The notes: a model not told the origin generated them from the letters alone. Shown: positions 200 through 56,099, counted from the first letter of the stretch. The stretch is DNA of 64,000 nucleotides from a virus (IMGVR_UViG_3300047382_000771:32001-96000); one strand, 5' to 3'. Made by a program: numbers and translations.

Positions 200-204
200 T
201 ACAC
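200..204 (-). promoter_or_regulatory. GTGTA motif, 9 nt upstream of uvsE ATG
   Basis: aaGTGTAagtattcttATG. Confidence 0.7.
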
Positions 205-459
205 TTAAATTAAGTCTGGTTCTTCTACTACTTTAGGCTCAGGAGCTGCAGAGGAAGATTCTCCTTGAGGTTTCTGTTTATAGATCCTAAAATCAGGAGC
301 TTTTGCGTTCTCTTCTTTATATTTATTCTTGAAGACAATAACTTTCTCTCCATTCATGGTACCTGTTAAGTATTTGGTACCATCTTGCTTTTGATTTACC
401 CAAAGGGCGCCGACTTCACGATCATCCCATTCATTCTTTTCTTTATCTTTATCTGACAT
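205..459 (-). CDS. DUF736-like small protein (putative ssDNA-binding fold)
   Basis: GALW...G..YLTG...VIVFKN..K....PDFRI pattern and an acidic C-terminal tail. Confidence 0.55.
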   Translation of the reverse strand: MSDKDKEKNEWDDREVGALWVNQKQDGTKYLTGTMNGEKVIVFKNKYKEENAKAPDFRIYKQKPQGESSSAAPEPKVVEEPDLI

Positions 460-466
460 AGTAGTA

Positions 467-538
467 TTAGTATTTACGAATTAAAACAAAGGCCACAATT
501 AGACCTATTAAAAAATTAAACAAAATCATATCCGCCAT
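467..538 (-). CDS. 23-aa single-TM peptide MADMILFNFLIGLIVAFVLIRKY
   Basis: Fills the 80-nt gap. The ATG lies 1 nt after the upstream TAA. Hydrophobic core followed by RKY. Confidence 0.5.
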   Translation of the reverse strand: MADMILFNFLIGLIVAFVLIRKY

Positions 539-539
539 A

Positions 540-1076
540 TTATCTAAACTCTTTTCTCAAGAGTCTCCATCTATCTGAATCAATATTTTTTGTACCATTA
601 TCAATAGCATACAACATTTTTATGATTTCGTCAAGCGAATTATAAATATATTTATGAGGCAACATTCCTAACATCCATAAGGGAGCCTTTGATTTACCAC
701 CTTCCATGCTTACAAAAACTGGTTTTTTTTCTCTTACCGCTGTAACAATTTCTTCTGCGCTCCCCCAACTTGCAACATCTGGAACAAGATGAGCTATAAT
801 AAAATCACTTCTGTCTACAAGATTTAAATCATAAGCCCTGACTGTTTTCATTTTGTCAGCAACTAATTCATAATTTTCATCCTGCATCCATTTTTCCATA
901 AGCATACGAGAGCCTTCATCCTCTTCGACATCTTTCATGAAAGGTTTTTCGTAGGGATTGAAACAAGTGATAGAAAGCTTAGATAACTTTTTTGTTACTT
1001 CTTGCCTCCAGTCTCGCCCACTCAGATACTGCATGTGGCCAACCAAATAAGTTTTGGTTTTGTATAATAAATTCAT
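540..1076 (-). CDS. Nucleoside 2-deoxyribosyltransferase-like / dNMP N-glycosidase-fold protein
   Basis: TYLVGHM..WRQ..FNP, DLNLVDRSDFIIA and WGSAEEI..A...KPV motifs. Confidence 0.65.
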   Translation of the reverse strand: MNLLYKTKTYLVGHMQYLSGRDWRQEVTKKLSKLSITCFNPYEKPFMKDVEEDEGSRMLMEKWMQDENYELVADKMKTVRAYDLNLVDRSDFIIAHLVPDVASWGSAEEIVTAVREKKPVFVSMEGGKSKAPLWMLGMLPHKYIYNSLDEIIKMLYAIDNGTKNIDSDRWRLLRKEFR

Positions 1077-1083
1077 GCTACAT

Positions 1084-1112
1084 ATAGTAGCATCAATAAA
1101 CTAAAATGTCAA
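1084..1112 (-). promoter_or_regulatory. sigma70-type promoter, near-leaderless
   Basis: TTGACA (1112-1107), 17 nt, TACTAT (1089-1084), 7 nt, ATG (1076). Confidence 0.8.
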
Positions 1113-1129
1113 GTATTTTTTGTTTGCTG

Positions 1130-6519: not shown

Positions 6520-6900
6520 TTAATTAACTACTATGTAAAGTGTATTTGAATCCTTAGTTGGAAGAGCATCATAGTCTGTTTGTGTGATCTTTAAAACGTT
6601 TGTGATATTATCAGAAGCTACATACTCAGCGTGATTTTGGAGTTGGCTTATGTCCGTAGGAATGATTGATGCAAAAGCAATGTCGTCTTGTATAATGGGG
6701 GTAACTGGATCAGCCTCCAGAGAATAACTTAAGGTAGAGGCGGATGTAGAATAAAATTTACCATAGTTAGTGTCAAATGAATCCATAATTCTGAAAGAAT
6801 TTTCGAAATCACCATGGTTAAACATTCCAGAAGCCCATGCCCGATCTGGTAAACCTAAACTACTATCGCTACCATTGGGGGTTATGTTTTGAATACTCAT
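6520..6900 (-). CDS. Small virion/tail-fibre adaptor-like protein
   Basis: MSIQNITPNGSDSSLGLP..W N-terminus and TQTDYDALPTKDSNTLYIV C-terminus. Confidence 0.6.
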   Translation of the reverse strand: MSIQNITPNGSDSSLGLPDRAWASGMFNHGDFENSFRIMDSFDTNYGKFYSTSASTLSYSLEADPVTPIIQDDIAFASIIPTDISQLQNHAEYVASDNITNVLKITQTDYDALPTKDSNTLYIVVN

Positions 6901-6919: not shown

Positions 6920-6924
6920 TACAC
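6920..6924 (-). promoter_or_regulatory. GTGTA motif, 19 nt upstream of ATG 6900
   Basis: aaGTGTAttatataatgtaataaattATG. Confidence 0.6.
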
Positions 6925-6934: not shown

Positions 6935-8701
6935 TTAGGGATTCTTAAAAGTAATATTTTCTAAGTCTTCTATCTCGAACGCATCATCAAAGTTGACTGT
7001 ATCTGTAAAGGTATTAGCATTTAATTGTAATGTTTCTGGGTCATATTGTGAAAAATATTTTGACTTGAAACCATTGGTTGAACCAACGAAAGATTGTAGA
7101 GAAGCTGAATCACTATTTGTTGTAAAAAATGAATTACCACTCTCGGTTGAAGTTATTTCAGGCTTACAAAGTATCCAGCCAGGAGGTAATGTAAAGACAG
7201 TATCGAATGGTATAGTTGTGGTCTCTCCATTTGGACCTATAAGCACAACAGGGAACGGAAATGGTCCCATTGTAAGTGGTGTTGGGGGATTACTTGTATT
7301 TTTAACCAAAATGTATGGAGGTGTCATAAGCCCACCTATAGTAACCGAAGTTCCACTGTCAGTAACCAAGGGGTCTTGAGTAAATGGAACTGTGGTTCCT
7401 AGTGCATCAGGTATGCCATCCCCATCTGCGTCTAGAATTTCTCCAAAGAAAACAGTGTCAGTCGGCTCAACTGAAATCATTTTATCTTTTTGAAAAACTG
7501 TTAATCCTCCTGAAGTTGAAATAATAACACCAGAATTTTTTGAAAGTATACTGTATTTTCTTCCTAGCCCGTTGTATGAACCATTATCATGTGTGACAAA
7601 TAAACTTTTCACATTAATAGCAGTAACAATGTCATCCGTGCCGTCACCGTCAACATCAAAGGTGAAGTCGCCTACCGTGTATCCAGCTGGAATATCAACA
7701 GGATTAGGTAGTGAATCCGCATCACTATCAATTAAACTATCTCCAAAAAATACTGTGTCATTTGGTGCAAGTTCAATAGATTCACCCGCACTAAATATAA
7801 CCACTTCACAATTAGTAGTAATAATGATTCCATGTTTCTTAGCTGACAACGAGAATGTTGTTAAGCTAGAATTTGTAGATCCGCTGTCTACATTAGTTAA
7901 AAACAAAGATGGATTGACTCCAGTACATGTTGAAAAATCTCCAGCCCCAGGATAACCTGCATCTAAATCTACTCCGTCAGGTATACCATCTCCGTCAGCA
8001 TCGCTGAATGTACCAAAGAATACAACTGTAGATGGAGTGTAATCTATAATATCTCCTGCCGCAAAATAACCGATAGAGCCGTCTGGATTGATTGAAAAAC
8101 CTCCGTCCTTAGCTGTAATTTTTACAGAGGTAGTTGTGTCGTTTCTAGAGCCATCCCCATTTAGAGGAGAAAGCAATAAAGAGGGATCTATATTTCCCCC
8201 ATCAAAAGGACCTGAACCTGCATAGTTTACATTAGTATCAAAAGGATCTACTATGCCGTCGCCATCAGAATCAACATAGGTTCCGCAAAACATTGTAGCT
8301 TTGGGTGGGAAATCAAAAACATCTCCTGGTTGAAAGAAGTGTAAGCTGCCATCAGCCAAAATTAAAAGCCCTTCGCAATCTGAGGTTTTTATAGATGTGA
8401 CTGTACTATTGTTAACGAGACTTTTTCCAACTGGATTTAAATAATCATTCATTGGAATGATATATCCATCTGGGTTTGTGTAAGGCCCGCTGCCAGGATA
8501 GTCAGCTACAGTTTCAGGGTCAAATTCGTCAGGTATGCCATCAAAGTCAAGATCGTAACTGTCGATGGGTAGTTTTGCCATGAAGGGGTCGTAATAAACC
8601 CATCGCCCACCACGATAAACTCCTAATTTATTCTTGGGAACATTAAAATAATTACCTCCTTCATAAGGAACGCTGGGCCAGTCACTAACAATATAAATCA
8701 T
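6935..8701 (-). CDS. Repeat protein with DxDGDGIxD (thrombospondin type 3-like, Ca-binding) motifs, putative virion-associated
   Basis: DLDFDGIPD, DSDGDGIVD, DADGDGIPD (twice) and DSDADSLPN punctuate repeats of about 85-95 aa. Confidence 0.6.
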   Translation of the reverse strand: MIYIVSDWPSVPYEGGNYFNVPKNKLGVYRGGRWVYYDPFMAKLPIDSYDLDFDGIPDEFDPETVADYPGSGPYTNPDGYIIPMNDYLNPVGKSLVNNSTVTSIKTSDCEGLLILADGSLHFFQPGDVFDFPPKATMFCGTYVDSDGDGIVDPFDTNVNYAGSGPFDGGNIDPSLLLSPLNGDGSRNDTTTSVKITAKDGGFSINPDGSIGYFAAGDIIDYTPSTVVFFGTFSDADGDGIPDGVDLDAGYPGAGDFSTCTGVNPSLFLTNVDSGSTNSSLTTFSLSAKKHGIIITTNCEVVIFSAGESIELAPNDTVFFGDSLIDSDADSLPNPVDIPAGYTVGDFTFDVDGDGTDDIVTAINVKSLFVTHDNGSYNGLGRKYSILSKNSGVIISTSGGLTVFQKDKMISVEPTDTVFFGEILDADGDGIPDALGTTVPFTQDPLVTDSGTSVTIGGLMTPPYILVKNTSNPPTPLTMGPFPFPVVLIGPNGETTTIPFDTVFTLPPGWILCKPEITSTESGNSFFTTNSDSASLQSFVGSTNGFKSKYFSQYDPETLQLNANTFTDTVNFDDAFEIEDLENITFKNP

Positions 8702-8726: not shown

Positions 8727-8731
8727 TACAC
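8727..8731 (-). promoter_or_regulatory. GTGTA motif, 25 nt upstream of ATG 8701
   Basis: aaGTGTAaataatcc in the intergenic region. Confidence 0.6.
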
Positions 8732-15000: not shown

Positions 15001-15417
15001 CGCTGTGTAATCAAGACCATCGACACATAAAGCACTAGTGGGTTGAAAGTATTCACCATCTTCTAGTATAATCTCCCCAGGCACGGTGCCATCTTCAGTT
15101 GCATGAGCCCAAACTGCCCCTCCGCTACCTAGATACCTACCATTAATTGATTCAAGATAAACTTCGCCCAAAGTGTGACTATCTAATCTACCATCGCCCG
15201 CATAATATGGGTATTCTTTACTACCTATCCTAGCCCAATAAGCGTCTCCGTTTGTCTGAGGAATAGAACTGGAATGAGACTGAATACATGTATAGAGTTT
15301 TTTGTAAGCTCCATCATCATATGTAATTCTATCACCTACATTATAACTTGTCGCACTGTCCCATACGCTGTTTGACCATTCAGATGACGGTACTCTCTTG
15401 ATGTAAATTTTAGGCAT
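12010..15417 (-). CDS. Paralog of 8765-12007: CBM-like module, three beta-helix modules, cupredoxin-like domain
   Basis: WDSATSYNVGDRITY..YTCIQSH. Three DPxF...LRxxSxxIG module ends. GGHP...YQCTVSGHQNMRGDIVV. Confidence 0.65.
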   Translation of the reverse strand: MPKIYIKRVPSSEWSNSVWDSATSYNVGDRITYDDGAYKKLYTCIQSHSSSIPQTNGDAYWARIGSKEYPYYAGDGRLDSHTLGEVYLESINGRYLGSGGAVWAHATEDGTVPGEIILEDGEYFQPTSALCVDGLDYTALNTGQVTITHFYFNYHYIHYGNSLTTHRSEITGINLIMGGGSSIKLIESNSKIFFKQCKLTDEDCPYGPANGNDFRIGNANHTSFKDTLLYFPNATAPLFGNGTTLHEGERPIWENTTFALGFGSGNNYSPLFYGSSNLSKSPYVKSCIFYATHLGYTSTGPINITHSNNIGESNILYSASDANTFTEVTDDFQYLDPGFVDSSKGNFSLRPSSPLIGGIKDESSLSKKYPDGVWVDHNHTPVQASHTFSLDSGNGTNYTFSGDETGSDPTLNVNIQDTLTFANNTGGHPLAIYNSQGLEVASESGGTTTFTPKYADTYYYQCTVSGHQNMRGDIVVSQGTLGSYNNPFESYHDAIDAGYFDSKLTLLFKEGDHLMSWYPGTGYSTSTGISSAFSGGLYFIGENHNSRLTTGNNFNSYSAFYVGTSLFTGGPQSQTPLNLENITIHINNTSSYLNRGLFSGAHWKSFSAKSVNITAELGAGINSSVFDYFTSHLPDGYSFKLSGCQFNVPLSDNNGPGGAFLNGTSKIAYDVQSCTFCKLSGYNYVHSGPSPLMVGGAFSVNNGSSIKNCIFYSNVGGDFYSNNPSTGVFSSCIFYSTTDSFTRLPADMDLNSTADPSFVQTIAGSEDLRLRADSPAIGGLTAEPTNVYYLQPGNAYNGDGSQKDASSMSAHGDAGPFNEFKEIVNAGVPYGSTIIIINGTYDWTTSFGRSPSSNVSSNVWYAYTCAGYNYIAETINEVIFDAKLDPSNIFAYKPYGGTVPGPSIGAFLDLDTTFTGIQFNNMIGADNATRNMITSVSGSAGLGSCTFKNCKFLGHINTASSTTYPWTGGGRNIYSSTMHWENCEISIAFDHAGGLLCGGDSFADDQYHGAWSWKNCTFYIPAGITTFNGRNAANGTYVSPSLIFGTNYSQNQRIFQNNIIHIPNGAASIGTNNSSKLPNIKNNCFNGVSPVYSSHDHTEILNSKNNLFGVDPKFVDPDSNKFNLRPTSTLIGKGL

Positions 15418-16694
15418 TAGAAATAGCCTCCGTCAATCAATAAAGGAGCTGGGTTGGCACCAATAGAAGGAGACTGAAAACCCTGCCTGATCGGTAATCC
15501 ATTTGTGCCAAGACTGTCACTGTCCCCGTTAATCACTGAATAAGATTCTCCATCTGTATGCACAAACTCGATATCTGAAGGAGTGTCGCCATCATCAACT
15601 TTAACAGCTATACCTAAAGCAATCGCATTGTTGGCGCTGACTTCTTCTTCACCCCCAACCAGGTGAGCTACTCTATTACCAGCTGTATCAGTTGTAAATA
15701 AAATAAAAGAACTTTCATCAGAATAAATCCTTGTATCAACTGGGTTGATGGCGTGAGCCCCAATATCAGTAGCACCTTTAACTTTAAAGTCGTTGAATCT
15801 ATACCATCCAGATTCTAACCCATAATCACCTGTAGTACCAATAACAAAACGTTGTTCGTCAGTTAAGAGCTTGAACACTAGATCTTGATCTATACCTGTT
15901 AGAACATTGGATGTACCTAACCCTAATTTATCAGCAGTTAAAACTGTAACAGCATTACCTTCTGCATCTTTTACCTGTGGGATTTCGTTGAAAAACAAAG
16001 ATTTAGGGTTATCTGGATCTGGTTTTAATTCGACTTCTCCAACTTTAAGGCCAGAAGGACCGAGTAATAGCCTACCATTGCCATCGGTATCTAAAGATAT
16101 ACTCTCTGCGCCACCAAGGACAATACCTGATGGAAAATTGACAGTGGTTCCATTGGAACTTAGTACGGCATCGCCAAGGTGTAAGGAATTGTTTGTTAGA
16201 TACAAATCTCTAACCTTATTAGTTGGGCTTCCGATATCATATGCTGCATCTGACTCAGGAAGAATAGAACTATTAAATGTTAGTTGATCTGAATCGATTT
16301 TAAGGGATCCCGAGTGCTGAGTTACAGAACTCTGAGTGATGTTAGTGTCAGGTACATTTACCCACGTTACTGCAGAGCCAAGATCGTTTAGCTCAGTAAA
16401 TGATGTCAAGAAACCCTGTGCGCTAAGGTCGCTGATTTGACTAGCTGACAAGGTAAGAGATGCTTCGTGCTGAGTTACAGAGCTCTGAGTAATGTTAGTG
16501 TCGGGTACATTTACCCATGTTACTGCAGAGCTAAGATCGTTTAGCTCAGTGAAGCCAGTTAATACTGGGTTGCCTTCTAAGGTTAAGTCTGTTAAGAAGT
16601 GACCACTTTTAAAATAAGCGTCACCCCATGCCTGAGTAGAGATACCTATGCCTCCCTCTCCGTCTGATCTTGGTATTAAATTTTTAGTAGCCAT
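15417..16694 (-). CDS. Putative tail-fibre protein with a KN(L/I)IP-type N-terminus and a duplicated ELNDLxSAVTWVNVPDTNITQSSVTQH repeat
   Basis: N-terminus shared with 6168 and 6520; internal 51-aa-period repeat; overlaps the downstream gene as TAATG. Confidence 0.6.
   Translation of the reverse strand: MATKNLIPRSDGEGGIGISTQAWGDAYFKSGHFLTDLTLEGNPVLTGFTELNDLSSAVTWVNVPDTNITQSSVTQHEASLTLSASQISDLSAQGFLTSFTELNDLGSAVTWVNVPDTNITQSSVTQHSGSLKIDSDQLTFNSSILPESDAAYDIGSPTNKVRDLYLTNNSLHLGDAVLSSNGTTVNFPSGIVLGGAESISLDTDGNGRLLLGPSGLKVGEVELKPDPDNPKSLFFNEIPQVKDAEGNAVTVLTADKLGLGTSNVLTGIDQDLVFKLLTDEQRFVIGTTGDYGLESGWYRFNDFKVKGATDIGAHAINPVDTRIYSDESSFILFTTDTAGNRVAHLVGGEEEVSANNAIALGIAVKVDDGDTPSDIEFVHTDGESYSVINGDSDSLGTNGLPIRQGFQSPSIGANPAPLLIDGGYF
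16314..16550. repeat. Direct repeat of about 84 nt (16314-16397 and 16467-16550), period 153 nt
   Basis: gtgctgagttacag...ggtacatttaccca...actgcagag...agatcgtttagctcagt occurs at both copies. Confidence 0.85.
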
Positions 16695-16716: not shown

Positions 16717-16721
16717 TACAC
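16717..16721 (-). promoter_or_regulatory. GTGTA motif, 22 nt upstream of ATG 16694
   Basis: aaGTGTAataaaataaaacttcaacaactATG. Confidence 0.6.
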
Positions 16722-19003: not shown

Positions 19004-19008
19004 TACAC
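19004..19008 (-). promoter_or_regulatory. GTGTA motif, 54 nt upstream of ATG 18949
   Basis: ttGTGTAcctttt in an AT-rich intergenic region; spacing is longer than at the other sites. Confidence 0.45.
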
Positions 19009-38094: not shown

Positions 38095-38355
38095 TTATAA
38101 GTCCTCCTTTAATCCTCTTTTCTTTATTTTATTATTTTGATATGTACAAAAAGTAATCAAAACAAAATGCCTACCCATAACTTTTTTATGAGTAATAGAA
38201 TAATTGTAGTTTTTTAGGAAACGAGATAAATCAATTAAGTATTTATCTTGTACATATATTATGATTTTTTTTGGATTACCTTTGTCGTCAATATCTTGAG
38301 AGAACATGACATCGTCTGCATATTCATAGCAAATATTTTCTATCGTAGTATTCAT
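38095..38355 (-). CDS. Hypothetical protein (86 aa)
   Basis: ORF preceded by the GTGTA motif. Confidence 0.5.
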   Translation of the reverse strand: MNTTIENICYEYADDVMFSQDIDDKGNPKKIIIYVQDKYLIDLSRFLKNYNYSITHKKVMGRHFVLITFCTYQNNKIKKRGLKEDL

Positions 38356-38366: not shown

Positions 38367-38371
38367 TACAC
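38367..38371 (-). promoter_or_regulatory. GTGTA motif, 11 nt upstream of ATG 38355
   Basis: taGTGTAcattattatgaATG. Confidence 0.7.
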
Positions 38372-41994: not shown

Positions 41995-42267
41995 TTAGTT
42001 GGAATCCTCTGGATCTATATCTCCGAAGCCAAACATGGATTCAGATTCTTCTAAGTTGGTGAGGTATTTTTCCAAAGATTTGCGTAATCCCATTTCTATG
42101 ATTTGGTTTTGAGCCCTTGTATAAACAAGAGGTTTTCCCTCTTGAGTTACGAAAGCTAATATGAAACCTTTGTGTTGGTTTCCCTCCCCGCTTAATTCAA
42201 AAATTGTATCAAGCAATGATTCGGGCATTTCAAATTTATTTAAGTCGTCTGGATTTATATCTGACAT
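41995..42267 (-). CDS. Hypothetical acidic protein (90 aa)
   Basis: ORF preceded by the GTGTA motif. Confidence 0.55.
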   Translation of the reverse strand: MSDINPDDLNKFEMPESLLDTIFELSGEGNQHKGFILAFVTQEGKPLVYTRAQNQIIEMGLRKSLEKYLTNLEESESMFGFGDIDPEDSN

Positions 42268-42276: not shown

Positions 42277-42687
42277 TTACACATCTATCCCTAAGGATTT
42301 TAATAAAGTTTTGGATAAATCGTCCTTGGGGTATACCTCTATGAACTTAATGTTGTTGAGTTTGCAATATTCTTCTTTACTATTGTCACGTCTAATTTGG
42401 CTAAGAAAATTTGACTTAGCTTTGCCGTGAAAAAATGGAGTATATTTTAAGTGTTGCTCTCCTTGGACTTCTATAGCTATTGAGTGACTGGCATTGTAAA
42501 AATCAAAGGACATTCTAGTGCCAACTACAGGCATTTCCTCAAAAACAAAATCTGAAGACCAGTACTTTTTTAGAAATTGTTTTACAAAGAATTGCCTTTT
42601 GCTTCTGCTTGGTTTTTCCCAATCAATTAAATATTTTTTTGGCTTACTTAATCTTTTACTGCCGCCTGTGAGAGTTTTAAAAATCAT
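42277..42687 (-). CDS. Vsr/DUF559-like PD-(D/E)XK endonuclease
   Basis: FDFY...IAIEVQGEQH...Q..RD..K..YC..NNI..IEV. Confidence 0.75.
   Translation of the reverse strand: MIFKTLTGGSKRLSKPKKYLIDWEKPSRSKRQFFVKQFLKKYWSSDFVFEEMPVVGTRMSFDFYNASHSIAIEVQGEQHLKYTPFFHGKAKSNFLSQIRRDNSKEEYCKLNNIKFIEVYPKDDLSKTLLKSLGIDV
42278..42282 (-). promoter_or_regulatory. GTGTA motif, 10 nt upstream of ATG 42267
   Basis: atGTGTAatatattattATG (inside the 3' end of the upstream gene). Confidence 0.65.
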
Positions 42688-44168: not shown

Positions 44169-47100
44169 TTATGAATAACTATTTGGTGTAAAAGATGTAT
44201 TACTAGAAGGGTAGGATCTTGATGGGCCCCAAATCAATCTCGCTGCACCAACTCCACCTAGGCCTCCGTTAGCTCGGGTATCGTCTTCTGCACCACCACC
44301 GCCGCCACCGAAATTTCCTCCGTGTCCGCCAGATGAGCCATCGCTCCCTCCAGAACCACCCTTGCCTATTGTTGAGCCGCTTCCAGATCCTCCAGAACCA
44401 CTACTACCAACACCATAAATGCCGACTCCGCCACCCCCATTAGATTGAGTGCCACCTCTTGCTTGACCTGCTCCGCCTCCTCCGCCGCCACCTGATCCAT
44501 TAAATCCATTTTTGTAATTTCCTGATGAACCTTGGCCTCCATTACCAGAATACCCAGCAGCACCACCTCCACCGCCGCCCCCGTTATTGTATTGAGAGGG
44601 TCCTCCGTATCCTCCTCTGAAGCCATTTGGGCCAGTAATATGAGAACCTCCAAGAGTGGCATTACTACTTCCATACGCTCCACCTTTACCACCGCCTGCT
44701 TCTAAAATGGTTGAATTGTTAAGTTTAATTACAGTATTACCTCCGTCAACCCCAGATGTTTTTGCCCAACCAACTCCTCCGCTACCACCTCTACCGACTA
44801 TGATGGTTATTTCATCACCTGGATTCACTGACTGTGAGGATGTGTAAGAGAGTGCTCCCCCGCCTCCTCCAGAACCAGAGTGTGTACTATTACCGAAAGA
44901 TCCAGCGGCCCCACCACCAGCACCAACCGCTAAAGCTGATATAGAATTAACGTGATTTGGTACTATGAATCTATATGTACCATCGGTTGTAAATTGCTCT
45001 TCACCCTGAGGGGTGATTGGGTTAGTTCCACCACTCATTTGAATGGTTTGTCCTTGGTTTAAAATTACAGAGCCACCTTGGTTTATAATAATGTCGGGAT
45101 CATTAGAGTCGTTCCAGTCATTAACAAACTCGGTTATAGTTTTTATTCCGTCCCCACTAAATGTGAACCCATTAAAAAACGAACTGTTGGTACTACTAGT
45201 TAATGAAACACTGGCCTGACTCTGGTCTGACGCAGTCACATTGCCAGAAAATAAAGAAGGGGAGCCTATAGAGCCTACCATGTACAAGGCTCTTATGTTA
45301 TCATTACCAGTAGAAGTAGTAAACTCAGTGTTCGGGTCAATCGGGTCCGCAAAAGTTCCAGGGCCATCCGTAACCCATTTAGCAAAAAGATATCCATTAT
45401 TAGGTGAAGCTGATAATGTGATTTTAGAATCCATTACCTTAGACAGGTTATTAACTCCATCCCCGTTTTGGGTACCTTGATTACCTGAAACCGTGATATT
45501 GTATCTGATTAATTTAACAGACAAATTAATAGTAGCATTTCCAGCCCCAACCGTAAAAGTTGTGCTAGGAGTGCTTGGACCAATTTGGCCAGCACCAGAA
45601 AGAGACCATGATTCAAATTCATAGCCAAGATTAGGGAGTGAGGATATAGTAACTACATCACCAATATTATAAACCCCACCCCCAGTTGCACTGGAGTTAG
45701 AGCCATTAATTGTAATTGTATAATCGATTGGTGTGAAGACCGCCTCTAAGAAAGCATTTCCATCACCGCCAATAAAAGTGGTTGATGCGGAGTTTACGTC
45801 TCCTATCGAGCCAGGTCCGCTTATGTTCCAGTGACTAAATTCGTAGCCGAGGTTAGGTGTAGCTGAAATGTTTACAACTTCCTGGTAATTAAATGAACTA
45901 GAACCAGTGGTTGAACCCGTGAAAGATTGCAGGCTTAGTTCGTAATTTATTAATGTATAAGTACCTTCTATTGTAGCATCACCTGCACCAACAGTAAAAG
46001 TTGTGCGTTTATTGAAAGAGTCAAATAAGGATCCAGTACCAGTTATGCTCCAATGACTGAACTCGTATCCAGTATTACCTATAGCTTCAATAGAAAAGGT
46101 ATCATTTATATTATATATGCCAGATCCAGTTTCGGTACCATTATCACCTTGTACTGAAATATTGTAATCAATAGCTGAGTAGTTTGCTGTAAGAGTAGTA
46201 TGCCCTTCTCCGACTGTAAAACTAGTCGAAGCTGAATTAGAATTAGCAATGCTTCCAGAACCTGACTTAGTCCAGTTTACAAACTCATAACCAGAGTTTG
46301 GTACAGCTTCAATAGTGAAGTTATCGTTAATGATGTGACTACCCCCAGCGGTTTCAACTCCGTTCTGTCCACGAATAGATATCGTGTAAGGTATTGCTAC
46401 ATAATTAGCTGTTATTGTTGCATCTCCAGCACCAACTATAAAATTAGTATTAGTGATAGAGCTATTTTGTATAACTCCAGATCCAGATAAAGACCAATGA
46501 GAGAATCTGTAGCCAGGGTCAGGGTTAGCTGTTAAAGATACAATATTATTTATATTATAAATGCCCCCTAAGCTTTCTGTTCCATTGTCTCCGTTTACAG
46601 TTATAGTATAATCGATAGCATTATATGTCGCTGATATGTCACAGTCTCCGTTTCCTACTGTGAATTGTGTTGATGCGGAGGAGGTGTCAGCTATAGTTCC
46701 AGCTCCAGATTTAGACCAAGATACAAATTCATAACCTAGGTCTGGAGTTGATAATAAATTAATATTGTCATTAATATTGTATATACCAGGGCTATTAACT
46801 GTTCCATTAGTACTATTAAAGTTAATTAAATAATCTATAGCTTTATAGATTGCAGTAAGTACTGCATCACTAGTATTGACAACATAACTAGTATTATTTA
46901 AACTGGAATTAGTAATTGACCCATCTCCATTTGTGGACCAATTAGAAAATAAATAGCCAAGGTCTGGTGTCGCTGTTATATTAACAATATTGCCTATGTT
47001 ATGAATCCCTGGGCCAGGTGTTTCCGTACCATTGGAACCGTCTGTACTAATGGAGTAATCTATTAAAGTGTAAATAGCTTCAACCGTACAATTACCTGCA

Positions 47101-49547
47101 CCTACTGTGAGTTTTGCATTAGGGGAGGTTGAGGAATCCAGAGAGCCTTGACCTGTTATAGACCAAGAAGTAAACTCATAACCAGGATCTGGTGTTGAAG
47201 TGATATTAATTACATTATTTATATTATAAACTCCAGAACCTGTTTCTACGCCATTTGAACCTTCGACAGTAATTGTGTAATCTATCAACTCGTAAATAGC
47301 TGTGACTGCAGCGTGTCCTGCACCAACAATAAATGTCGTTGATGATACAGCTGTATTGGAAATTGATCCTGGGCCAGATTTAGACCAAGATACAAATTTA
47401 TATCCAGGGTCTGGGTTAGCACTTAATGAAATTGCGTCTCCTATATTGTAGACACCTGAGCCAGACTGACTGCCATTTGGGCCAATGATTGATATATTAT
47501 AATCTATAGCTGTATAATTAGCGCTGATTAATGCATCTCCTGCACCTACTGTAAATTTGGTTTGAGTTGAGGCAGCTGAAAGTATGGTGCCTGGATCAGA
47601 AGATGACCAAGAGGTGAATTCATATCCAAGTTCTGGCTTGGCTGTTATATCTAAAACATTACCTATATTATAGATGCCTCCGCCTGTTTCTACCCCATTA
47701 GATCCATTTGTAGATATTGTGTAGTCAATAGCTTCATAGATAGCCTCTATGGTGCAGTTGCCGTTTCCAATAACAATAGATGTGCTTCTTGAGGTGCGGC
47801 TTGTAAGGCTTCCAGGTCCAGTTAGTACCCAGTTTTTAAATAAATAACCAGGATTGGGTGTAGCCGTAATATTAATTACATCGTTAATATTATAAATCCC
47901 GCCTCCTGTGGAGCTTCCATTAGATCCTGATAGTATTAGGGTGTAATCAATTGCTTGATAGTTTGCAGTAATTAAAGCATCAGATGAAGATACTTGGAAA
48001 GTAGTTGATGGGGAGTTAGGTTGTGTTATTGATCCCGCGTCTGAGGTAGACCAGTTAGAGAATTCATAACCAGGGTCAGGGGTAGCTGTAAGTCCAGGAG
48101 CACTTAAATATTCAAAGGACCCAGATCCAGTCTCGGTTCCATTATCCCCAGATACTGTGATGTTGTATAGTATTTTTGAGTATGAGGGGTATACCTCAGA
48201 GTTGCCAGCACCAACTACAAATGTTGTGGTTTCAGAACTTGGCGAAGATACTGTGCCGTCTCCTTTTACTATCCATTTGTCAAAATTAAAACCAACCAAA
48301 GCATCGGCGGAAATATTTATAGTATCACCTATGTTGGATACCGTTTTAGTAGTATAATCATTTACTGGGGTGTTGTCAGACTCCCGTCTTGTTGAAGTGG
48401 TAATATTATAATCTATAGCTTCATAAGTAGCTGTTAAGTCAACACTGGAGGTACCTATAGTAAAAACAGTGCTTGCGGATCTGTCGTTTTTAATAGATCC
48501 TGCACCAGAATTTATTACCCATTTTTTGAACTTGTAACCCGCATTTGGGGTAGATGAAATATTAACGGTATTTCCTGTTTTATATTGTCCAGAGCCAGTC
48601 TCTATACCATTACCACCTGTAAGATTGAGTAGGATAATACTCTTTTTATATTTAGCTATAATTTCACACGATCCCGCACCGACAGTAAAATTAGTGGTTA
48701 ATGAAGATTTATTTTCCAGATTACCAGGTCCAGACAATCCCCATTGTGTAAATTCATAACCAGGCACAGATGCGGCAGAAATAGAAAATGTATCACTAAT
48801 ATTGTATATGCCACCTTCTGTTTGAGGACCTAGTCCAGATACTTTTACATTATAATCTATAGCTTCGTAATTAGCTACTATATTTGCATTGCCTGCTCCA
48901 ACTTTAAAATTAGTAGATGATGAAGAAGGGTCAGCTATAGTTCCTGGGCCAGTGAAACTCCATTGTTTAAACCTATATCCTGCAAATGGTTTTGCTGATA
49001 TATTAACTATGTTGGTGATATTGTATACTCCTGAGCCTTTTTCAGAACCATTAGTACCAGAAACATCTATGTCGTAGTCAATAGCTGTATAGCTAGCTTC
49101 AACTTTAGAGTGGAATGTGCCTACTGTAAATTGTGTAGAAGGGGAGGTTTTTTGAGCAACTGAACCTGGGCCGATGACTTTCCAGCTTTTAAATAAATAG
49201 CCAGGATTAGGTGTTGAGGATATTGGGATAGAGGTACCTACTGGAAATGCTCCCGCTCCAGTTTCTACACCGTTGTCGCCATCAATTTCTATGATGAATG
49301 TTGATATTTCAGCTAAGTCATCTGGCCTAAATGAGTTATCAAATGTATCTTGTAATAGATTATCTAATTCAGCTGTTTTTAATCTTCTATTAAATTCCCT
49401 ACCAATATGATTAACATAATAATCTTTTGCGAACTCTCCTCCGTTTTTTAAATATTCCTGAATCTCAACTTCAAGAGCATTATGTTTGCTCGAAAGTTTC
49501 CCTGAATTTCTAAGGGCATGTATTCGGTGGCGAAGATCGTATGACAT
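44169..49547 (-). CDS. 1792-aa protein with 18 tandem InlB B-repeat-like (Flg_new-type) domains and a C-terminal glycine-rich fibre-tip domain
   Basis: Counted 18 units of about 74 aa (NG.ETG.G.Y...I.A.P..GY.F..W...G.G.I....ST.F.VG.G...A.Y.AIDY). C-terminal FTTDGTY.F.VP..V..I....VGAGGG...GARLIWG. Confidence 0.82.
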   Translation of the reverse strand: MSYDLRHRIHALRNSGKLSSKHNALEVEIQEYLKNGGEFAKDYYVNHIGREFNRRLKTAELDNLLQDTFDNSFRPDDLAEISTFIIEIDGDNGVETGAGAFPVGTSIPISSTPNPGYLFKSWKVIGPGSVAQKTSPSTQFTVGTFHSKVEASYTAIDYDIDVSGTNGSEKGSGVYNITNIVNISAKPFAGYRFKQWSFTGPGTIADPSSSSTNFKVGAGNANIVANYEAIDYNVKVSGLGPQTEGGIYNISDTFSISAASVPGYEFTQWGLSGPGNLENKSSLTTNFTVGAGSCEIIAKYKKSIILLNLTGGNGIETGSGQYKTGNTVNISSTPNAGYKFKKWVINSGAGSIKNDRSASTVFTIGTSSVDLTATYEAIDYNITTSTRRESDNTPVNDYTTKTVSNIGDTINISADALVGFNFDKWIVKGDGTVSSPSSETTTFVVGAGNSEVYPSYSKILYNITVSGDNGTETGSGSFEYLSAPGLTATPDPGYEFSNWSTSDAGSITQPNSPSTTFQVSSSDALITANYQAIDYTLILSGSNGSSTGGGIYNINDVINITATPNPGYLFKNWVLTGPGSLTSRTSRSTSIVIGNGNCTIEAIYEAIDYTISTNGSNGVETGGGIYNIGNVLDITAKPELGYEFTSWSSSDPGTILSAASTQTKFTVGAGDALISANYTAIDYNISIIGPNGSQSGSGVYNIGDAISLSANPDPGYKFVSWSKSGPGSISNTAVSSTTFIVGAGHAAVTAIYELIDYTITVEGSNGVETGSGVYNINNVINITSTPDPGYEFTSWSITGQGSLDSSTSPNAKLTVGAGNCTVEAIYTLIDYSISTDGSNGTETPGPGIHNIGNIVNITATPDLGYLFSNWSTNGDGSITNSSLNNTSYVVNTSDAVLTAIYKAIDYLINFNSTNGTVNSPGIYNINDNINLLSTPDLGYEFVSWSKSGAGTIADTSSASTQFTVGNGDCDISATYNAIDYTITVNGDNGTESLGGIYNINNIVSLTANPDPGYRFSHWSLSGSGVIQNSSITNTNFIVGAGDATITANYVAIPYTISIRGQNGVETAGGSHIINDNFTIEAVPNSGYEFVNWTKSGSGSIANSNSASTSFTVGEGHTTLTANYSAIDYNISVQGDNGTETGSGIYNINDTFSIEAIGNTGYEFSHWSITGTGSLFDSFNKRTTFTVGAGDATIEGTYTLINYELSLQSFTGSTTGSSSFNYQEVVNISATPNLGYEFSHWNISGPGSIGDVNSASTTFIGGDGNAFLEAVFTPIDYTITINGSNSSATGGGVYNIGDVVTISSLPNLGYEFESWSLSGAGQIGPSTPSTTFTVGAGNATINLSVKLIRYNITVSGNQGTQNGDGVNNLSKVMDSKITLSASPNNGYLFAKWVTDGPGTFADPIDPNTEFTTSTGNDNIRALYMVGSIGSPSLFSGNVTASDQSQASVSLTSSTNSSFFNGFTFSGDGIKTITEFVNDWNDSNDPDIIINQGGSVILNQGQTIQMSGGTNPITPQGEEQFTTDGTYRFIVPNHVNSISALAVGAGGGAAGSFGNSTHSGSGGGGGALSYTSSQSVNPGDEITIIVGRGGSGGVGWAKTSGVDGGNTVIKLNNSTILEAGGGKGGAYGSSNATLGGSHITGPNGFRGGYGGPSQYNNGGGGGGGAAGYSGNGGQGSSGNYKNGFNGSGGGGGGGAGQARGGTQSNGGGGVGIYGVGSSGSGGSGSGSTIGKGGSGGSDGSSGGHGGNFGGGGGGAEDDTRANGGLGGVGAARLIWGPSRSYPSSNTSFTPNSYS

Positions 49548-49557: not shown

Positions 49558-49562
49558 TACAC
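49558..49562 (-). promoter_or_regulatory. GTGTA motif, 10 nt upstream of ATG 49547
   Basis: taGTGTAactattatttATG. Confidence 0.7.
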
Positions 49563-50364: not shown

Positions 50365-50799
50365 TCATCTCCTTTTGTTTGGGACTGCATAAAAACCCAC
50401 AACCATAAAACATAAATCCATAAATGCCGACAACATTAGGCCTCCAGTTAATGTCACAACTTCCCAATCTTTACCACCAAAAACCCAACTAAATAAACCC
50501 CATTTAGCTGAATCACCTTTGGGTACTATTAAGTCATAAGTGATGTTGGGGTTATGGGCATAATAAATCATCATATAGCACATTGTAAAAGTTATACTCA
50601 TAAACAAAACCCTGCGTGTGACTTTAACAAATGGGTCATCAGCCCTCTTGTCTTGGTTGGATATTAATGCATTAAGCATTTCATTATCTCTTGCTGCAAG
50701 TAACATTTGATCTTGCCTCTTTTGTTCGAGCCAGGCATTAACTAGGTTACATCCAAGCTTGATGCCAGCACCTAAAATAGTATTTAATATGGGACCCAT
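50365..50799 (-). CDS. Holin-like membrane protein (resembles the 3TM GTA-type holins)
   Basis: Amphipathic N-terminus, charged linker, TM RRVLFMSITFTMCYMMIYY, TM ending VVGFYAV, basic tail KRR. Confidence 0.45.
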   Translation of the reverse strand: MGPILNTILGAGIKLGCNLVNAWLEQKRQDQMLLAARDNEMLNALISNQDKRADDPFVKVTRRVLFMSITFTMCYMMIYYAHNPNITYDLIVPKGDSAKWGLFSWVFGGKDWEVVTLTGGLMLSAFMDLCFMVVGFYAVPNKRR

Positions 50800-50808: not shown

Positions 50809-51339
50809 TTACACTTTTATGGAAACAAATAGTTTAATTATTGAAGTTTTTTTAATCGAGTCAGAGTAAAACCATACCCAGGGATAACTGCAATGTATTG
50901 AATTTACTTCTTTTTCTGCATCACTTATAGATTGTTCTAAATGCCTTATACTTTTGTAATCTATATCTGATGTGTCTATTTTTAATTTTTCAGCTATAGA
51001 GATCAAATCATAGGATTTGTTTTCTTTTTTAGCTTGAACAGCTTCTTCTAGTAGGCCTCTAGTGGAGTCATCTTTAGTTATATCTGTATGGGTTTGTGTA
51101 GCTATTTTCCTAAAAATACTTTTAAGATTTTTTGGGAGAGGCTCTTTTTTTTGACCCTCTTCTTTTTTGAGGTTTTGAAAGGGGTCTTTTAAATTATTCT
51201 TAGAGCAATACTCGTGAACAGCAGAGCAGAATAAAGGGACGGATTGTTCGTAAATTTCTTTACAAAGCGAAAGCTCTTCTTTTATCTCTTTGCTTTTAAA
51301 CTTTAACCTTCTGATTAAAGTTTTTTTATACCCATCCAC
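50809..51339 (-). CDS. Helical protein containing a J-domain-like segment (HPD replaced by HTD)
   Basis: LKSIFRKIATQTHTD resembles the J-domain helix II-loop (IKKAYRKLAxxxHPD). Confidence 0.5.
   Translation of the reverse strand: MDGYKKTLIRRLKFKSKEIKEELSLCKEIYEQSVPLFCSAVHEYCSKNNLKDPFQNLKKEEGQKKEPLPKNLKSIFRKIATQTHTDITKDDSTRGLLEEAVQAKKENKSYDLISIAEKLKIDTSDIDYKSIRHLEQSISDAEKEVNSIHCSYPWVWFYSDSIKKTSIIKLFVSIKV
50810..50814 (-). promoter_or_regulatory. GTGTA motif, 10 nt upstream of ATG 50799
   Basis: aaGTGTAatatacctttATG. Confidence 0.7.
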
Positions 51340-53164: not shown

Positions 53165-53169
53165 TACAC
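53165..53169 (-). promoter_or_regulatory. GTGTA motif, 9 nt upstream of ATG 53155
   Basis: gtGTGTAttattatgcATG. Confidence 0.65.
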
Positions 53170-53179
53170 ACAAAAAAAA

Positions 53180-53566
53180 CTAGCAGTTCGATTTTATAAT
53201 TTTTACTATCTTGCTATCTATTAAATATGGGAACCTATCTAGCTCTTCAACTTTAAACCAACCGTACTCTGTATGCTCTTCATTCAGGTTAACATTAGGT
53301 ATTTCATCGAAGTTGTATTTGAATATGTCAAAAGTATTTGAACCCTTATATATAGTTTTGCAGAAAACAAGGTCTATTGGAGATATTTTTATGCCCGTTT
53401 CTTCGTCCAGTTCTCTGCTGGCACAAACCCTAGGAGACTCTGCAGGAGGCTCTCTTGAGCCTGCAAATATACTCCAGTAACCACTGTAGGCGATCTCTGG
53501 CCCTTCTATGCGTCTAGCCAAAAGGACTAAGGAATTATTATATATAATACAACCAGCAGCACTCAC
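53180..53566 (-). CDS. NUDIX hydrolase (likely start GTG 53566)
   Basis: Nudix box G(SREPPA)ESPRVCASRELDEETGI, with one extra residue after the Gly; LNEEHTEYGWF. Confidence 0.85.
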   Translation of the reverse strand: MSAAGCIIYNNSLVLLARRIEGPEIAYSGYWSIFAGSREPPAESPRVCASRELDEETGIKISPIDLVFCKTIYKGSNTFDIFKYNFDEIPNVNLNEEHTEYGWFKVEELDRFPYLIDSKIVKIIKSNC

Positions 53567-53576
53567 TGCCAATATG

Positions 53577-53581
53577 TACAC
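53577..53581 (-). promoter_or_regulatory. GTGTA motif, 10 nt upstream of GTG 53566
   Basis: agGTGTAcatattggcaGTG. Confidence 0.55.
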
Positions 53582-53585
53582 CTAA

Positions 53586-56084
53586 TTACTGGCAACTTTC
53601 ACAGATTTCTCCATTTTTCATAGCCTCGATACTACAAGCAGAGGCTTCGGTTGTTTCCTTGGATTCCGTTTCAGACGAAGAGGGGGTGGATTTCTCAATT
53701 TTACTAGCAGCCCTATTCCTTAAATAGTAGGTTGTTTTTAAACCATCTTCCCATGACTTCATATATATATCATTAAGATACTTGAGAGATGTCCCTTTAT
53801 TATACAGATTAAAACTAATCGATTGATCGAACCACTTTTGCCTAGAAGCATTACATTCAATCAACTTGATCATATCCCTGTCGAAAGCTGTTTTATATTT
53901 TTCCTTAATACGATCAGGTATAGATCCATTGAGTAGAGATAAATCTCCATCGCAACTTTTAACTAAAGCTGCCATTTCGCTATTCCATAAACCTATGTCC
54001 TTCATGTCTTTAACGAAATGAGGGTTTGTGATGTAAAAATTCCCGCTCTTATTTTCGTAAACGAATAAAACAGAAAAGTTTGGCTCAATGCTTTGTTCTA
54101 CACCATTAATGTAACCTATTGTTGCGGTAGGCGCAATAGCCATGACATTGGAGTTTCTCATGCCAAATTCAGCGATGTGATCCCTGACAGTTTTCCAGTC
54201 ATCAAGAGATTCACCCTTGCCTTTTGGTGGGGATTTTCTCTCTTGGACTTGGTCGTTGTATTGGTATGTCTTGTTCCTGTATGCCATTAGATTATTGTAA
54301 GAATCTATAGGGAGTATGTTTTGACTCCACAGAGAACCTTCGTAAGTTTCATAAGAACCTCTTTCTTTTGCTAATTTAGAGCTAGCAAGAATAGCTTGTT
54401 TGCTAAAAAACTCAAAGAAAGAATCGTTCCATTTAACGGCTTCGTCGCTATCAATATTAATATTCATTACATGCAATACATCATGAATACCCATGACACC
54501 CAAGCCTATAGGCCTGTTCTTGAGATTGGAGTTACTAGACTCCTTTGTTGGGTAGAAATTAATATCAATAACATTATCTAACATTCTTACCGCTGTATGT
54601 ATTGATTCTTTTAATTTTTCGTAATCAAATACATAACTACTTTTACCATGAGTCATCTTTTCCTTGACATGATTGAGTAGATTAATAGAACCTAAATTAC
54701 AAACAGCAGTTTCTCCTATCTCTGTTTTTTCTCCTTTACTGTACTTTGAGGCTTTTGTGTGGAGAGTTATTTCTGTACAAAGATTACTACTATGAACTAC
54801 TCCTTCGTGCTGATTAGTATAACGTATGTTACAGGGATCCTTAAATGTACTCCATGGGTGAGAAGTTTCAAATAAAACCTTTAACATTTTTTTCCATAAC
54901 TCTTTTGCAGGGCTTACTCTGTAATTTTTAATTAAACCTTCCTCTGCTTTAGCGCATAGTTCATTGTATTTTTTATCAAATTCAGCCCCAAAGCAATCGT
55001 GTAAATCAGCTTCTGTTGGGTCAAAAAAGTACCAATCATCTTCGTTCTGTACTCTCCTCATGAACTCATCTGGAATCCAAGACGCAGTATTCATATCGTG
55101 ACAACGTAATCTGTCATCTCCAGTATTTCTTCTTAAGTTGAGGAAATCTTCGTAATCCAAATGCCAGGGCTCTAGATAAGCACAGCCTGCTCCAGGCCTT
55201 TTACCTCCCTGGTTAACTGCAACCAGAAGATCATTGTATATTTTTAACCAAGGTATTAAACCTCCAGATATACCATTCGTTCCTTTAATGTGAGAACCAG
55301 CAGAGCGAAACGGAGTGACATCAAAACCTAAACCTCCTGCAAATTTTGACTTGCGAGCTTCTTGCCAAGCCCCATCAAAAATTCCATCAATACTGTCGTC
55401 AAAGGTATTTAAATAACAAGAGCTAAGTTGAGAATGCGTGGTACCACTATTGAATAAAGTGGGTGTTGAGGACGTGTAAAGTTGTTGGCTTATCAGATTG
55501 TAAAACTCTATAGCTTTTTCGTTCTTATCTTTCTCGTTTAAGGCTAAACCCATGGCGACCCTCATGTAGAAAGACTGTGGAGCTTCCATCACTTTATTAT
55601 CAAGTCTTATAAAGTACCTGTCATACAAAATTTGTATGCCGAGATATTTTAAGTTCCTGTCTCTTCTAATAGAAATTGCTTCTGACAATTTAGAGAGATC
55701 GAAGTCGAGCAACTTACTATCTAACCTTTCTTCTTTTACTAATTTTTTAGTATTCTGAATAAAACTTTTCCTGTACTGGAGCTTGAACGCATCCGAATCC
55801 GCGCTTTCTTTAAATACTTCTTTATACAAAGTATTGAGTAATAATCCCGCTGCAGCGTAGGAATAGTTTGGTTCTTTCTCTATCTTTTCCCTTGCCGAAA
55901 AAATCAGAGCTTGGTCTATCTCTCTCGTAGTGATTTTATCAAATAGCTGAAGCTGTGCGTCTAGCACTATCTCGCTAGCTGATACATCTTCAATGCCTTC
56001 ACACGCTCTTTGGGCGCTGGCATTAATTTTCTCTACAGTAAAGTCTTCTAATCTTCCGTTTCTCTTCTTAACTTTTATATCCAT
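53586..56084 (-). CDS. nrdA: Ribonucleotide reductase alpha subunit (class I) with an N-terminal ATP cone
   Basis: VKKRNG ATP cone; TPTLFNSG; SSCYL; QGGKRPGA; SNLCTEI; APTA; KTTYYLR; C-terminal CESCQ. Confidence 0.96.
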   Translation of the reverse strand: MDIKVKKRNGRLEDFTVEKINASAQRACEGIEDVSASEIVLDAQLQLFDKITTREIDQALIFSAREKIEKEPNYSYAAAGLLLNTLYKEVFKESADSDAFKLQYRKSFIQNTKKLVKEERLDSKLLDFDLSKLSEAISIRRDRNLKYLGIQILYDRYFIRLDNKVMEAPQSFYMRVAMGLALNEKDKNEKAIEFYNLISQQLYTSSTPTLFNSGTTHSQLSSCYLNTFDDSIDGIFDGAWQEARKSKFAGGLGFDVTPFRSAGSHIKGTNGISGGLIPWLKIYNDLLVAVNQGGKRPGAGCAYLEPWHLDYEDFLNLRRNTGDDRLRCHDMNTASWIPDEFMRRVQNEDDWYFFDPTEADLHDCFGAEFDKKYNELCAKAEEGLIKNYRVSPAKELWKKMLKVLFETSHPWSTFKDPCNIRYTNQHEGVVHSSNLCTEITLHTKASKYSKGEKTEIGETAVCNLGSINLLNHVKEKMTHGKSSYVFDYEKLKESIHTAVRMLDNVIDINFYPTKESSNSNLKNRPIGLGVMGIHDVLHVMNINIDSDEAVKWNDSFFEFFSKQAILASSKLAKERGSYETYEGSLWSQNILPIDSYNNLMAYRNKTYQYNDQVQERKSPPKGKGESLDDWKTVRDHIAEFGMRNSNVMAIAPTATIGYINGVEQSIEPNFSVLFVYENKSGNFYITNPHFVKDMKDIGLWNSEMAALVKSCDGDLSLLNGSIPDRIKEKYKTAFDRDMIKLIECNASRQKWFDQSISFNLYNKGTSLKYLNDIYMKSWEDGLKTTYYLRNRAASKIEKSTPSSSETESKETTEASACSIEAMKNGEICESCQ

Positions 56085-56094
56085 GAAAGTAATT

Positions 56095-56099
56095 TACAC
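56095..56099 (-). promoter_or_regulatory. GTGTA motif, 10 nt upstream of the nrdA ATG
   Basis: tcGTGTAaattactttcATG. Confidence 0.7.

Follow-up and report, generated by a model that had tools for sequence, protein, structure and literature searches.

The DNA analysed here is a stretch of 64,000 nucleotides (the window), bases 32001-96000 of one viral record of 200,094 bp (IMGVR_UViG_3300047382_000771), and it raises a simple question: is the five-base word GTGTA, which lies a short distance ahead of many of its start codons, a promoter, and if so, what reads it? The virus is an uncultured marine myophage of roughly 200 kb with a genomic G+C content of 36.4%, and the window carries tail sheath, tail fibre and baseplate-like genes along with nrdA/nrdB and genes for a ClpB-like ATPase, DNA polymerase III alpha, UvdE and NUDIX proteins. 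A first-pass annotation had proposed that GTGTA marks a phage-specific class of promoters producing leaderless transcripts, with its own sigma factor encoded in the same window. In this phage and in hundreds of relatives, the invariant word stands 9-12 bases ahead of the start codons of middle and late genes. As an observation the motif is robust, as a promoter it is likely, and for the sigma factor the phage offers three candidates; GTGTA is probably a one-piece promoter read by a phage sigma factor and giving rise to leaderless or near-leaderless messages. Coordinates are those of the window unless marked as genome positions, and a gap is the number of nucleotides between the motif and the start codon.

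Positional Enrichment and Anatomy of the Motif

To keep gene starts independent of the motif, genes were called on the whole genome by a greedy, motif-blind procedure that takes the first start codon of the longest open reading frame (ORF), which gave 211 genes in total and 190 in minus-strand orientation. Of all 211, 18 have GTGTA at a distance of 9-13 nt ahead of the start when 0.57 are expected (binomial p = 3e-21), and the word ranks first among all 1024 pentamers at this distance; not one of 2000 shuffles reached 18, the largest value being 6. Genome-wide, 30 genes have the word within 60 nt upstream. Because its total count in the window is unremarkable (100 occurrences of TACAC/GTGTA vs. 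108 ± 11 in shuffles), the enrichment is purely positional. Intergenic DNA makes up 8% of the genome and holds 34 of the 216 copies, and only two word families stand out within it: TTGACA (20 vs. 1.9 expected) and GTGTA(A), with 13 copies of GTGTAA where 1.0 is expected. The enrichment near starts that the first-pass annotation had put forward is therefore confirmed, and with motif-blind starts it is stronger than was claimed; it persists against shuffled controls across the genome, and the spacing recurs in relatives.

All five bases of the word appear to matter, since none of the 15 one-mismatch variants is meaningfully enriched at the same position: none reaches a nominal p of 0.04, GTATA is only slightly elevated (5 vs. 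1.9 expected), and ATGTA is absent (0 vs. 2.3 expected). Sequence logos built from 29 sites of this genome and from 165 non-redundant sites of the family contain no conserved column upstream of GTGTA, which indicates that there is no -35 element. When a -35 element hidden in a subset of the sites was sought, all that emerged were A or T tracts at -8 to -3 and a few TAGACTT sites that are probably orthologous. The base immediately after the word is mostly A, the next six are A/T-rich and almost free of G, and A or T tracts occur just upstream. A weight matrix trained on the flanks of sites in relatives, with the pentamer itself omitted, scores start-proximal copies above the other 187 copies in the genome (p = 9e-10). 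The description of the motif as a distinct, phage-specific, promoter-like class that lacks a -35 element and precedes non-early genes thus stands.

The genomic context of the sites is also distinctive. Several lie 9-14 nt past the end of the preceding gene or within its last codons, and the word is rare ahead of internal, tightly coupled genes. A terminator-like hairpin precedes 4% of sites (vs. 1%). Back-to-back pairs of the form TACAC-N8-10-GTGTA occur between divergent genes and are kept in many relatives. One such pair (TACAC-N10-GTGTA, genome 170429-170447) separates a minus-strand gene at 169680-170405 from a plus-strand gene that begins at 170675, and recurs in L055, L060, L061, L064, L073, L075 and other related loci, as well as in a locus from a groundwater metagenome (L140) and its near-identical twin (L141).

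Conservation in Relatives

The genome encodes three sigma-like proteins, P0001, P0002 and P0003, and the family was sampled through 31 loci around relatives of P0001 and 80 around relatives of P0003. Over these loci the distances from GTGTA to the start codon are sharply concentrated, with 146 cases at 9 nt, 50 at 10, 23 at 11 and 51 at 12, and about one per bin elsewhere. After look-alikes were removed, 165 sites were left, with a modal gap of 9; the mode of 10 that had been reported does not extend to the family, though the gaps given for the window are correct. In three IMG/VR contigs (L010-L012), orthologues of a 478-aa gene of the window (49% identity) keep the GTGTA while their flanks differ, and other operon heads in the same contigs also bear it. 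The arrangement is present as well in contigs binned into metagenome-assembled genomes (MAGs) and in a handful of distant contigs, including one of groundwater origin. In one distant relative, an IS605 OrfB/TnpB-like gene (388 aa) stands right behind a gap-9 site (L138:4381-5547, L139:3130-4296).

Related records are fragments: those of 30-60 kb are 22-45% complete by CheckV, which by arithmetic corresponds to genomes of about 130-145 kb and gives the family a size range of about 130-210 kb. Run searches placed DNA of the phage in about 20 seawater metagenome runs; a single RNA run matched, with a small share of its words, and yielded short contigs of relatives at 90-95% identity. Among 50,697 GenBank phage records, tblastn returned no match to the 478-aa protein, P0002 or P0003 and only six weak hits to P0001 (E of 0.01 or worse), so that the family has no cultured member in that collection. 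We found no paper linking GTGTA to phage promoters.

Sequence Signatures of Predicted Leaderless Messages

If transcription began just downstream of GTGTA, genes at short gaps should have no use for a Shine-Dalgarno sequence, and this is the pattern observed: a 5-mer match to the Shine-Dalgarno sequence is present in 1% of genes with gaps of 7-14 nt, in 22% of those with gaps of 18-40 nt, and in 10% of motif-free genes. Under the same start rule, 96% of short-gap genes begin with ATG, compared with 71% of other genes. Transcription starts usually prefer a pyrimidine at -1 and a purine at +1, and a pyrimidine immediately precedes the start codon in 86% of gap-9 genes vs. 52% of controls (p = 6e-9). 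With the A of ATG taken as +1, the word would occupy -14 to -10 at gap 9 and -15 to -11 at gap 10, a geometry that predicts, from sequence, leaderless or nearly leaderless mRNA.

The prediction extends to the early genes. Both in this genome and among its relatives, TTGAC[AT] stands most often 29 nt ahead of the start codon (62 cases), a distance made up of a 17-nt spacer, a 6-nt hexamer and six further bases. When these sigma-70-type promoters are aligned on the ATG, T is found at -12 in 91%, A at -11 in 98%, T at -7 in 98%, and a pyrimidine at -1 in 91%. In that this class is in exact register with the A of ATG as +1, a leaderless design would be a trait of the whole phage family. The leaderless prediction made for GTGTA accordingly gains support from the missing Shine-Dalgarno sequences, the 96% of ATG starts and the pyrimidine(-1)/A(+1) step, and loses only the implication that it is special to that class.

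The two classes differ in what they offer a sigma factor. At GTGTA sites, T occupies the equivalent of -7 in only about 31-50% of cases (the value varies with register and gap class), whereas the sigma-70-type class reaches 98%, and the lack of this hallmark argues against reading by the sigma that serves the early class. Nor do GTGTA sites conform to an extended -10 element (TGnTATAAT): the T at -7 is weak and the TG is one base out of register, an offset that the first-pass annotation had correctly noted. In the early region, the site at genome 18256 combines TTGACT, a 17-nt spacer and GTGTAACAT into a workable sigma-70 promoter. Sigma-70-like promoters in the late region show no enrichment (65 vs. 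62.7 in shuffles).

A search for a third promoter class, with GTGTA and TTGACA removed, recovered only sigma-70-like variants (CTTGC or TAGAAA near -35 and TATAAT near the start), none of them sharp. Some small genes of relatives, such as those at L072:4939, L084:2436, L096:1601 and L122:7382, have TAGAAA about 18 nt ahead of a TATAAT-like hexamer that abuts the ATG, an arrangement not evident in this genome; the TAGAAA element could be a -35 variant or a minor third class. A long block rich in T (CACTTTTTTCTTGC...) is common to the upstream part of several promoters of the early region at genome 179-190 kb (L007/L008); these have a -35 element of the TTGC type and end 6-8 nt before the ATG.

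GTGTA Sites of the Window

The 17 positions reported for the window, given as TACAC on the plus strand, are all confirmed, and their gaps are correct when read on the minus strand. Each of the following is a GTGTA site.

200-204, minus strand: gap 9 to the ATG of a UvdE-like gene (genome 31069-32190, extending past the window start)
6920-6924, minus strand: gap 19, gene 6520-6900 (126 aa, phage tail tip domain)
8727-8731, minus strand: gap 25, gene 6935-8701 (588 aa)
16717-16721, minus strand: gap 22, gene 15417-16694 (425 aa); top flank score of the genome
18176-18180, minus strand: gap 9, gene 16730-18166 (478-aa repeat protein); terminator-like hairpin and T run upstream
19004-19008, minus strand: gap 54, gene 18269-18949 (226 aa); a weak, distant case
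21638-21642, minus strand: gap 17 to a 24-codon ORF (21620 down to 21546)
23319-23323, minus strand: gap 10, gene 22505-23308 (267 aa, InlB B-repeat domain)
30113-30117, minus strand: gap 13, gene 27532-30099 (855 aa, tail-fibre-like)
32571-32575, minus strand: gap 12, ClpB-like gene 30144-32558; within the last codons of the DNA polymerase III alpha gene
38367-38371, minus strand: gap 11 (7 to an earlier ATG), gene 38095-38355 (86 aa)
42278-42282, minus strand: gap 10, gene 41995-42267 (90 aa)
49558-49562, minus strand: gap 10, gene 44169-49547 (1792 aa, 18 InlB B-repeats)
50810-50814, minus strand: gap 10, gene 50365-50799 (144 aa)
53165-53169, minus strand: gap 9 to the in-frame ATG at 53155, a re-assigned start; the longest ORF begins at TTG 53173
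53577-53581, minus strand: gap 10, measured to GTG 53566, an in-frame, re-assigned and ambiguous start of the NUDIX gene
56095-56099, minus strand: gap 10, nrdA 53586-56084

The identities given to the genes behind the uvsE, clp, nrdA and NUDIX sites hold as UvdE (Pfam match, E = 1e-19), ClpB-like, NrdA and NUDIX, respectively; in the shorter form of the gene behind 53577, the NUDIX domain starts at residue 2. The 478-aa protein encoded at 16730-18166 on the minus strand is of capsid size and is made up of three internal repeats of about 85 aa (…NPxSGxxNDTxSxxVVSV…GPNGExK…SPLPxPxPAYTGDPF), and it has no match in Pfam, PHROG or GenBank phages.

Several features adjoin GTGTA sites here and elsewhere in the genome. 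The 24-codon ORF (MNLIFKTIAYDGDGNVSSITKDYA, 21546-21620, minus strand) overlaps the ATG of an 836-aa gene as TAATG and may be a leader peptide or a coupling ORF. ARAGORN predicts a transfer-messenger RNA (tmRNA) gene at genome 30645-31043 on the minus strand (window -1355 to -957), its tag being AESSQRVVDLDSIELGLEMAA. This gene follows immediately behind the UvdE-like gene and may be co-transcribed with it from the site at 200. A gene for tRNA-Thr(tgt) is present at genome 17900-17975. Upstream of the gene at genome 143310-144743, a perfect 10-bp inverted repeat (AGGGGAGGTG ... CACCTCCCCT, genome 144716-144762) flanks both the GTGTA site and the ATG of this 477-aa gene, and may serve as a hairpin in regulation or as a terminator that the adjacent gene also uses.

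Sigma-Family Genes and the Question of the Reader

The genes for the three sigma-like proteins are spread about 75 kb apart. One of them, together with its promoter, is at the end of the window.

63419-63448, plus strand: P0001 promoter, TTGACA (63419-63424), an 18-nt spacer ending in TGt, and TAACAT (63443-63448)
63466-64000, plus strand: P0001, a sigma-family gene (189 aa) that runs 35 nt beyond the window end

Taken alone, P0001 gives weak hits (11 bits to Pfam sigma region 2, and nothing in Pfam at E of 0.01). A profile of 12 family members searched against the PDB returned 67 hits, all to sigma factors, the best being region 2 of SigA/RpoD (E = 3e-4), and a KFSTYLGxETKWMCLN block is conserved in the family. 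Its AlphaFold2 model has a pLDDT of 82.5, and the top 50 Foldseek matches in the PDB are all sigma factors (probability 0.97-1.00); TM-scores are low (0.3-0.4), the two domains being freely oriented in the model. On this profile and model evidence, P0001 is a real sigma-family protein with a predicted sigma-2 plus sigma-4 fold. Its promoter, 17 nt from the ATG, is conserved in relatives whose proteins are 45% identical. Within 63415-63449 there is a direct repeat (ATGTTGACAT / ATGTTAACAT, 14 nt apart), also kept in relatives with a 45%-identical protein, which may be the binding site of a regulator. The earlier description of a sigma gene at 63466 behind a perfect host-type promoter is therefore right about the protein and too generous about the promoter, which is good rather than perfect (TTGACA-18-TAACAT, with a TGn).

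P0002 (genome 19499-20053) is an extracytoplasmic function (ECF)-type sigma factor encoded in an early operon. P0003 (genome 167977-168720; L013:1009-1752, minus strand) shows weaker signals of the sigma family and contains a Cys4 insert: an invariant block (CxxC...C...C) separates its sigma-2-like and sigma-4-like parts, and a GRKAGYKQIKNLK helix is likewise invariant. It is 51-99% identical over 80 viral loci, far above neighbouring genes, and its homologues form 2145 cluster representatives. GTGTA at a gap of 9-12 stands at the head of the P0003 operon in most relatives; genes further along this operon encode an ERCC4-like nuclease and the large terminase.

Which of these proteins would read GTGTA is a matter of rough odds. 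We regard P0001 as a possible reader, P0003 as a rather less likely one, and P0002 and something other than the three as equally doubtful. The P0001 and P0003 families both co-occur with GTGTA, but co-occurrence was not decisive in separating the three sigmas, the related records all being fragments; the absence of P0003 from the 150-kb record G002, for instance, is accounted for by the contig end. P0001 is a credible candidate and no more. The proposed two-step cascade, from host sigma-70 to phage sigma to GTGTA genes, keeps its real sigma gene, but becomes one of several schemes in a genome with three sigma-like genes, one of which, P0003, is itself in a GTGTA-headed operon. Searches for a phage RNA polymerase gave no Pfam match, a weak negative in that the control for the single-subunit family matched nowhere.

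Proposed Mechanism and Its Alternatives

The model that we favour is that GTGTA and the A/T-rich, G-poor stretch after it would form a single recognition element in the -10 region, at about -14 to -10, with no -35 element. It would most likely be read by the host's core RNA polymerase equipped with one of the three sigma-family proteins that the phage encodes, and the class would drive essentially all non-early transcription units: those for DNA repair, for nucleotide metabolism and for the tail and its fibres, as well as the terminase operon. Transcription would begin on the A of ATG itself or 0-3 nt away from it and produce a leaderless mRNA translated without a Shine-Dalgarno sequence; where GTGTA is 18-40 nt upstream, the message would have a leader, and Shine-Dalgarno sequences would be more frequent. 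The host-type early promoters (TTGACA-17-TAnnnT) would share the leaderless register, making leaderless expression family-wide.

Several points weigh against this model. P0003 itself stands behind a GTGTA site. The C-terminal helix-turn-helix of P0001 and of P0003 is highly conserved, yet no -35 partner for it is seen. None of the three proteins resembles gp36, the sigma factor of phage phiEco32 (BLASTP of P0001, P0002 and P0003, nothing below E of 0.18), and the gp36 chain 9m7y_F comes only at rank 45 (E = 0.56) among the matches of the P0003 model. GTGTA is not depleted within genes, so that the pentamer alone must be insufficient; the information in the flanks is weak, and part of that signal may be intergenic A/T richness. 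Since many family sites are orthologues of one another, part of the count does not consist of independent events. In the window, the sites at 53165 and 53577 are tied to starts that were re-assigned, and the short contigs of relatives from the sole matched RNA run carry no transcript 5'-end information.

A possible objection to a phage-borne reader is that a host sigma factor could recognize GTGTA, be it the primary sigma working in an atypical extended -10 mode or an alternative sigma, perhaps helped by a phage co-factor, in which case the phage sigma-like proteins would serve other promoters or roles. The word can be aligned as G-15 T-14 G-13 T-12 A-11, beside the canonical TGnTA; the site at genome 18256 joins TTGACT and a 17-nt spacer to GTGTAACAT; and the P0001 promoter itself uses TGtTAACAT. 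We nonetheless consider this explanation unlikely: the shortage of T at the -7 equivalent and the lack of a -35 element set GTGTA sites apart from a sigma-70-type class with T-12 and A-11 at 91-98%, the TG is one base outside the extended -10 register, and G1 and G3 never vary, which is not the behaviour of extended -10 promoters. The motif, moreover, follows the phage family across varied MAG bins and habitats, which a phage-borne reader fits better.

GTGTA might instead act in RNA, as a Shine-Dalgarno-independent site for the ribosome or another protein, or as an endonuclease site at which polycistronic RNA is trimmed to near-leaderless messages. Its fixed spacing to the start codon and the missing Shine-Dalgarno sites would suit such a role, as would those sites just after or inside the preceding gene, which are present in read-through RNA. 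However, a substitute for ribosome binding would be pointless at 18-40 nt, where Shine-Dalgarno sequences are more common (22% vs. 10%); and the conserved divergent pairs, the rarity of the word ahead of internal, tightly coupled genes, and the sites behind terminator-like hairpins (4% vs. 1%) all speak for a signal in DNA, as does the pyrimidine(-1)/A(+1) step, which recurs in the sigma-70-type class, without doubt a DNA-level signal. An RNA-level role is, on balance, quite improbable. Equally a matter of DNA would be an operator for a phage repressor or activator over otherwise weak A/T-rich promoters, since the word is short and invariant and overlies the -10 region of A/T-rich DNA with many TAnnnT-like hexamers. 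A non-palindromic site of 5 bp would be atypical of an operator, neither a second half-site nor a fixed partner motif came to light, and the late region is not enriched in sigma-70-like promoters (65 vs. 62.7), all of which makes this the kind of explanation to which we attach very little weight. A promoter read by a phage sigma factor is the reading that we carry forward.

Host Clues and Significance

Taxonomic labels give no consistent signal of a host. Relatives of P0003 are absent from 185,579 GTDB species genomes, and one homologue of P0003 carries the label Actinobacteria; a search for WhiB genes gave none. Relatives of P0001 occur in 11 MAG bins of mixed taxonomy, six of them Bacteroidota and the remainder Verrucomicrobia, Cellvibrionales, Bdellovibrionota and Desulfobacterota. 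Early promoters of the TTGACA/TATAAT type do not resemble those of Bacteroidota.

Homologues of the sigma genes number in the thousands in metagenomes. Our views are evenly balanced on the broader proposal that this is an abundant, uncultured aquatic family (130-210 kb) that expresses nearly its whole programme from leaderless messages, using host-type promoters early and GTGTA promoters later, the latter served by a new clade of phage sigma factors (P0001, or an auto-amplifying Cys4 protein, P0003). If true, it would amount to a transcription code for a large marine phage group that lacks any cultured representative: TTGACA-17-TAnnnT-6-ATG and GTGTA-9/10-ATG would delimit nearly all transcription units and place the start codon with single-base precision. 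The motif would then be a cheap rule for locating true gene starts and transcription units in such contigs, improving the annotation of metagenomic viral sequences and separating early from later gene classes without expression data, and it would point to a host that translates leaderless mRNA efficiently. It would also offer a compact, orthogonal sigma/promoter pair. Two questions follow: which host tolerates or prefers a phage with nearly all of its messages leaderless, and which phage sigma among the three recognizes an element of 5 bp without a -35 partner.

Comparison with Known Systems

Leaderless transcription units are well known in Actinobacteria, in Deinococcus-Thermus and in the phages of both, such as Thermus phage P23-45. 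As predicted for the units considered here, they place a -10 element 6-7 nt before an AUG that serves as +1, lack a Shine-Dalgarno sequence and prefer AUG; in our case, by contrast, the design spans two promoter classes of one phage family, the genome has a G+C content of 36%, and no WhiB gene is seen. T4 late promoters (TATAAATA) are read by gp55 together with gp33 and the sliding clamp. They, too, are one-piece, -35-less elements of the -10 region that depend on a small, highly diverged phage sigma produced at an earlier stage of infection and serve structural genes; but their consensus is a different one, and T4 late mRNAs have leaders with Shine-Dalgarno sequences.

A nearer parallel is phiEco32, whose middle and late promoters consist of a single element, tAATGTAtA, with no -35 and with starts 6-8 bp downstream, recognized by gp36, a sigma factor of the phage itself; the centre of AATGTA is at -11.5 (PMC8948821; PMC12276001). 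There as here, a single conserved element in the -10 region has a TGTA core and no -35 partner, it is found on non-early genes while early genes have host sigma-70 promoters, and the phage encodes a sigma factor but no RNA polymerase (none was detected here). By analogy, the phiEco32 start distance would put +1 at the ATG or 1-3 nt before it, leaving a leader that is absent or minimal in either case. There are also differences: the first base of our motif is an invariant G and ATGTA is missing (0 vs. 2.3 expected), gp36 is not detectably similar to any of the three sigma-like proteins, and phiEco32 is a 77-kb coliphage, whereas the genome of our marine myophage measures roughly 200 kb and has three sigma genes. 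Abutment on the start codon, which is systematic here, is not described for phiEco32 in PMC8948821 or PMC12276001. The gp36 promoters of phiEco32, though they differ in exact consensus and sigma lineage, are the closest described system, sharing with GTGTA both its architecture and its TGTA core.

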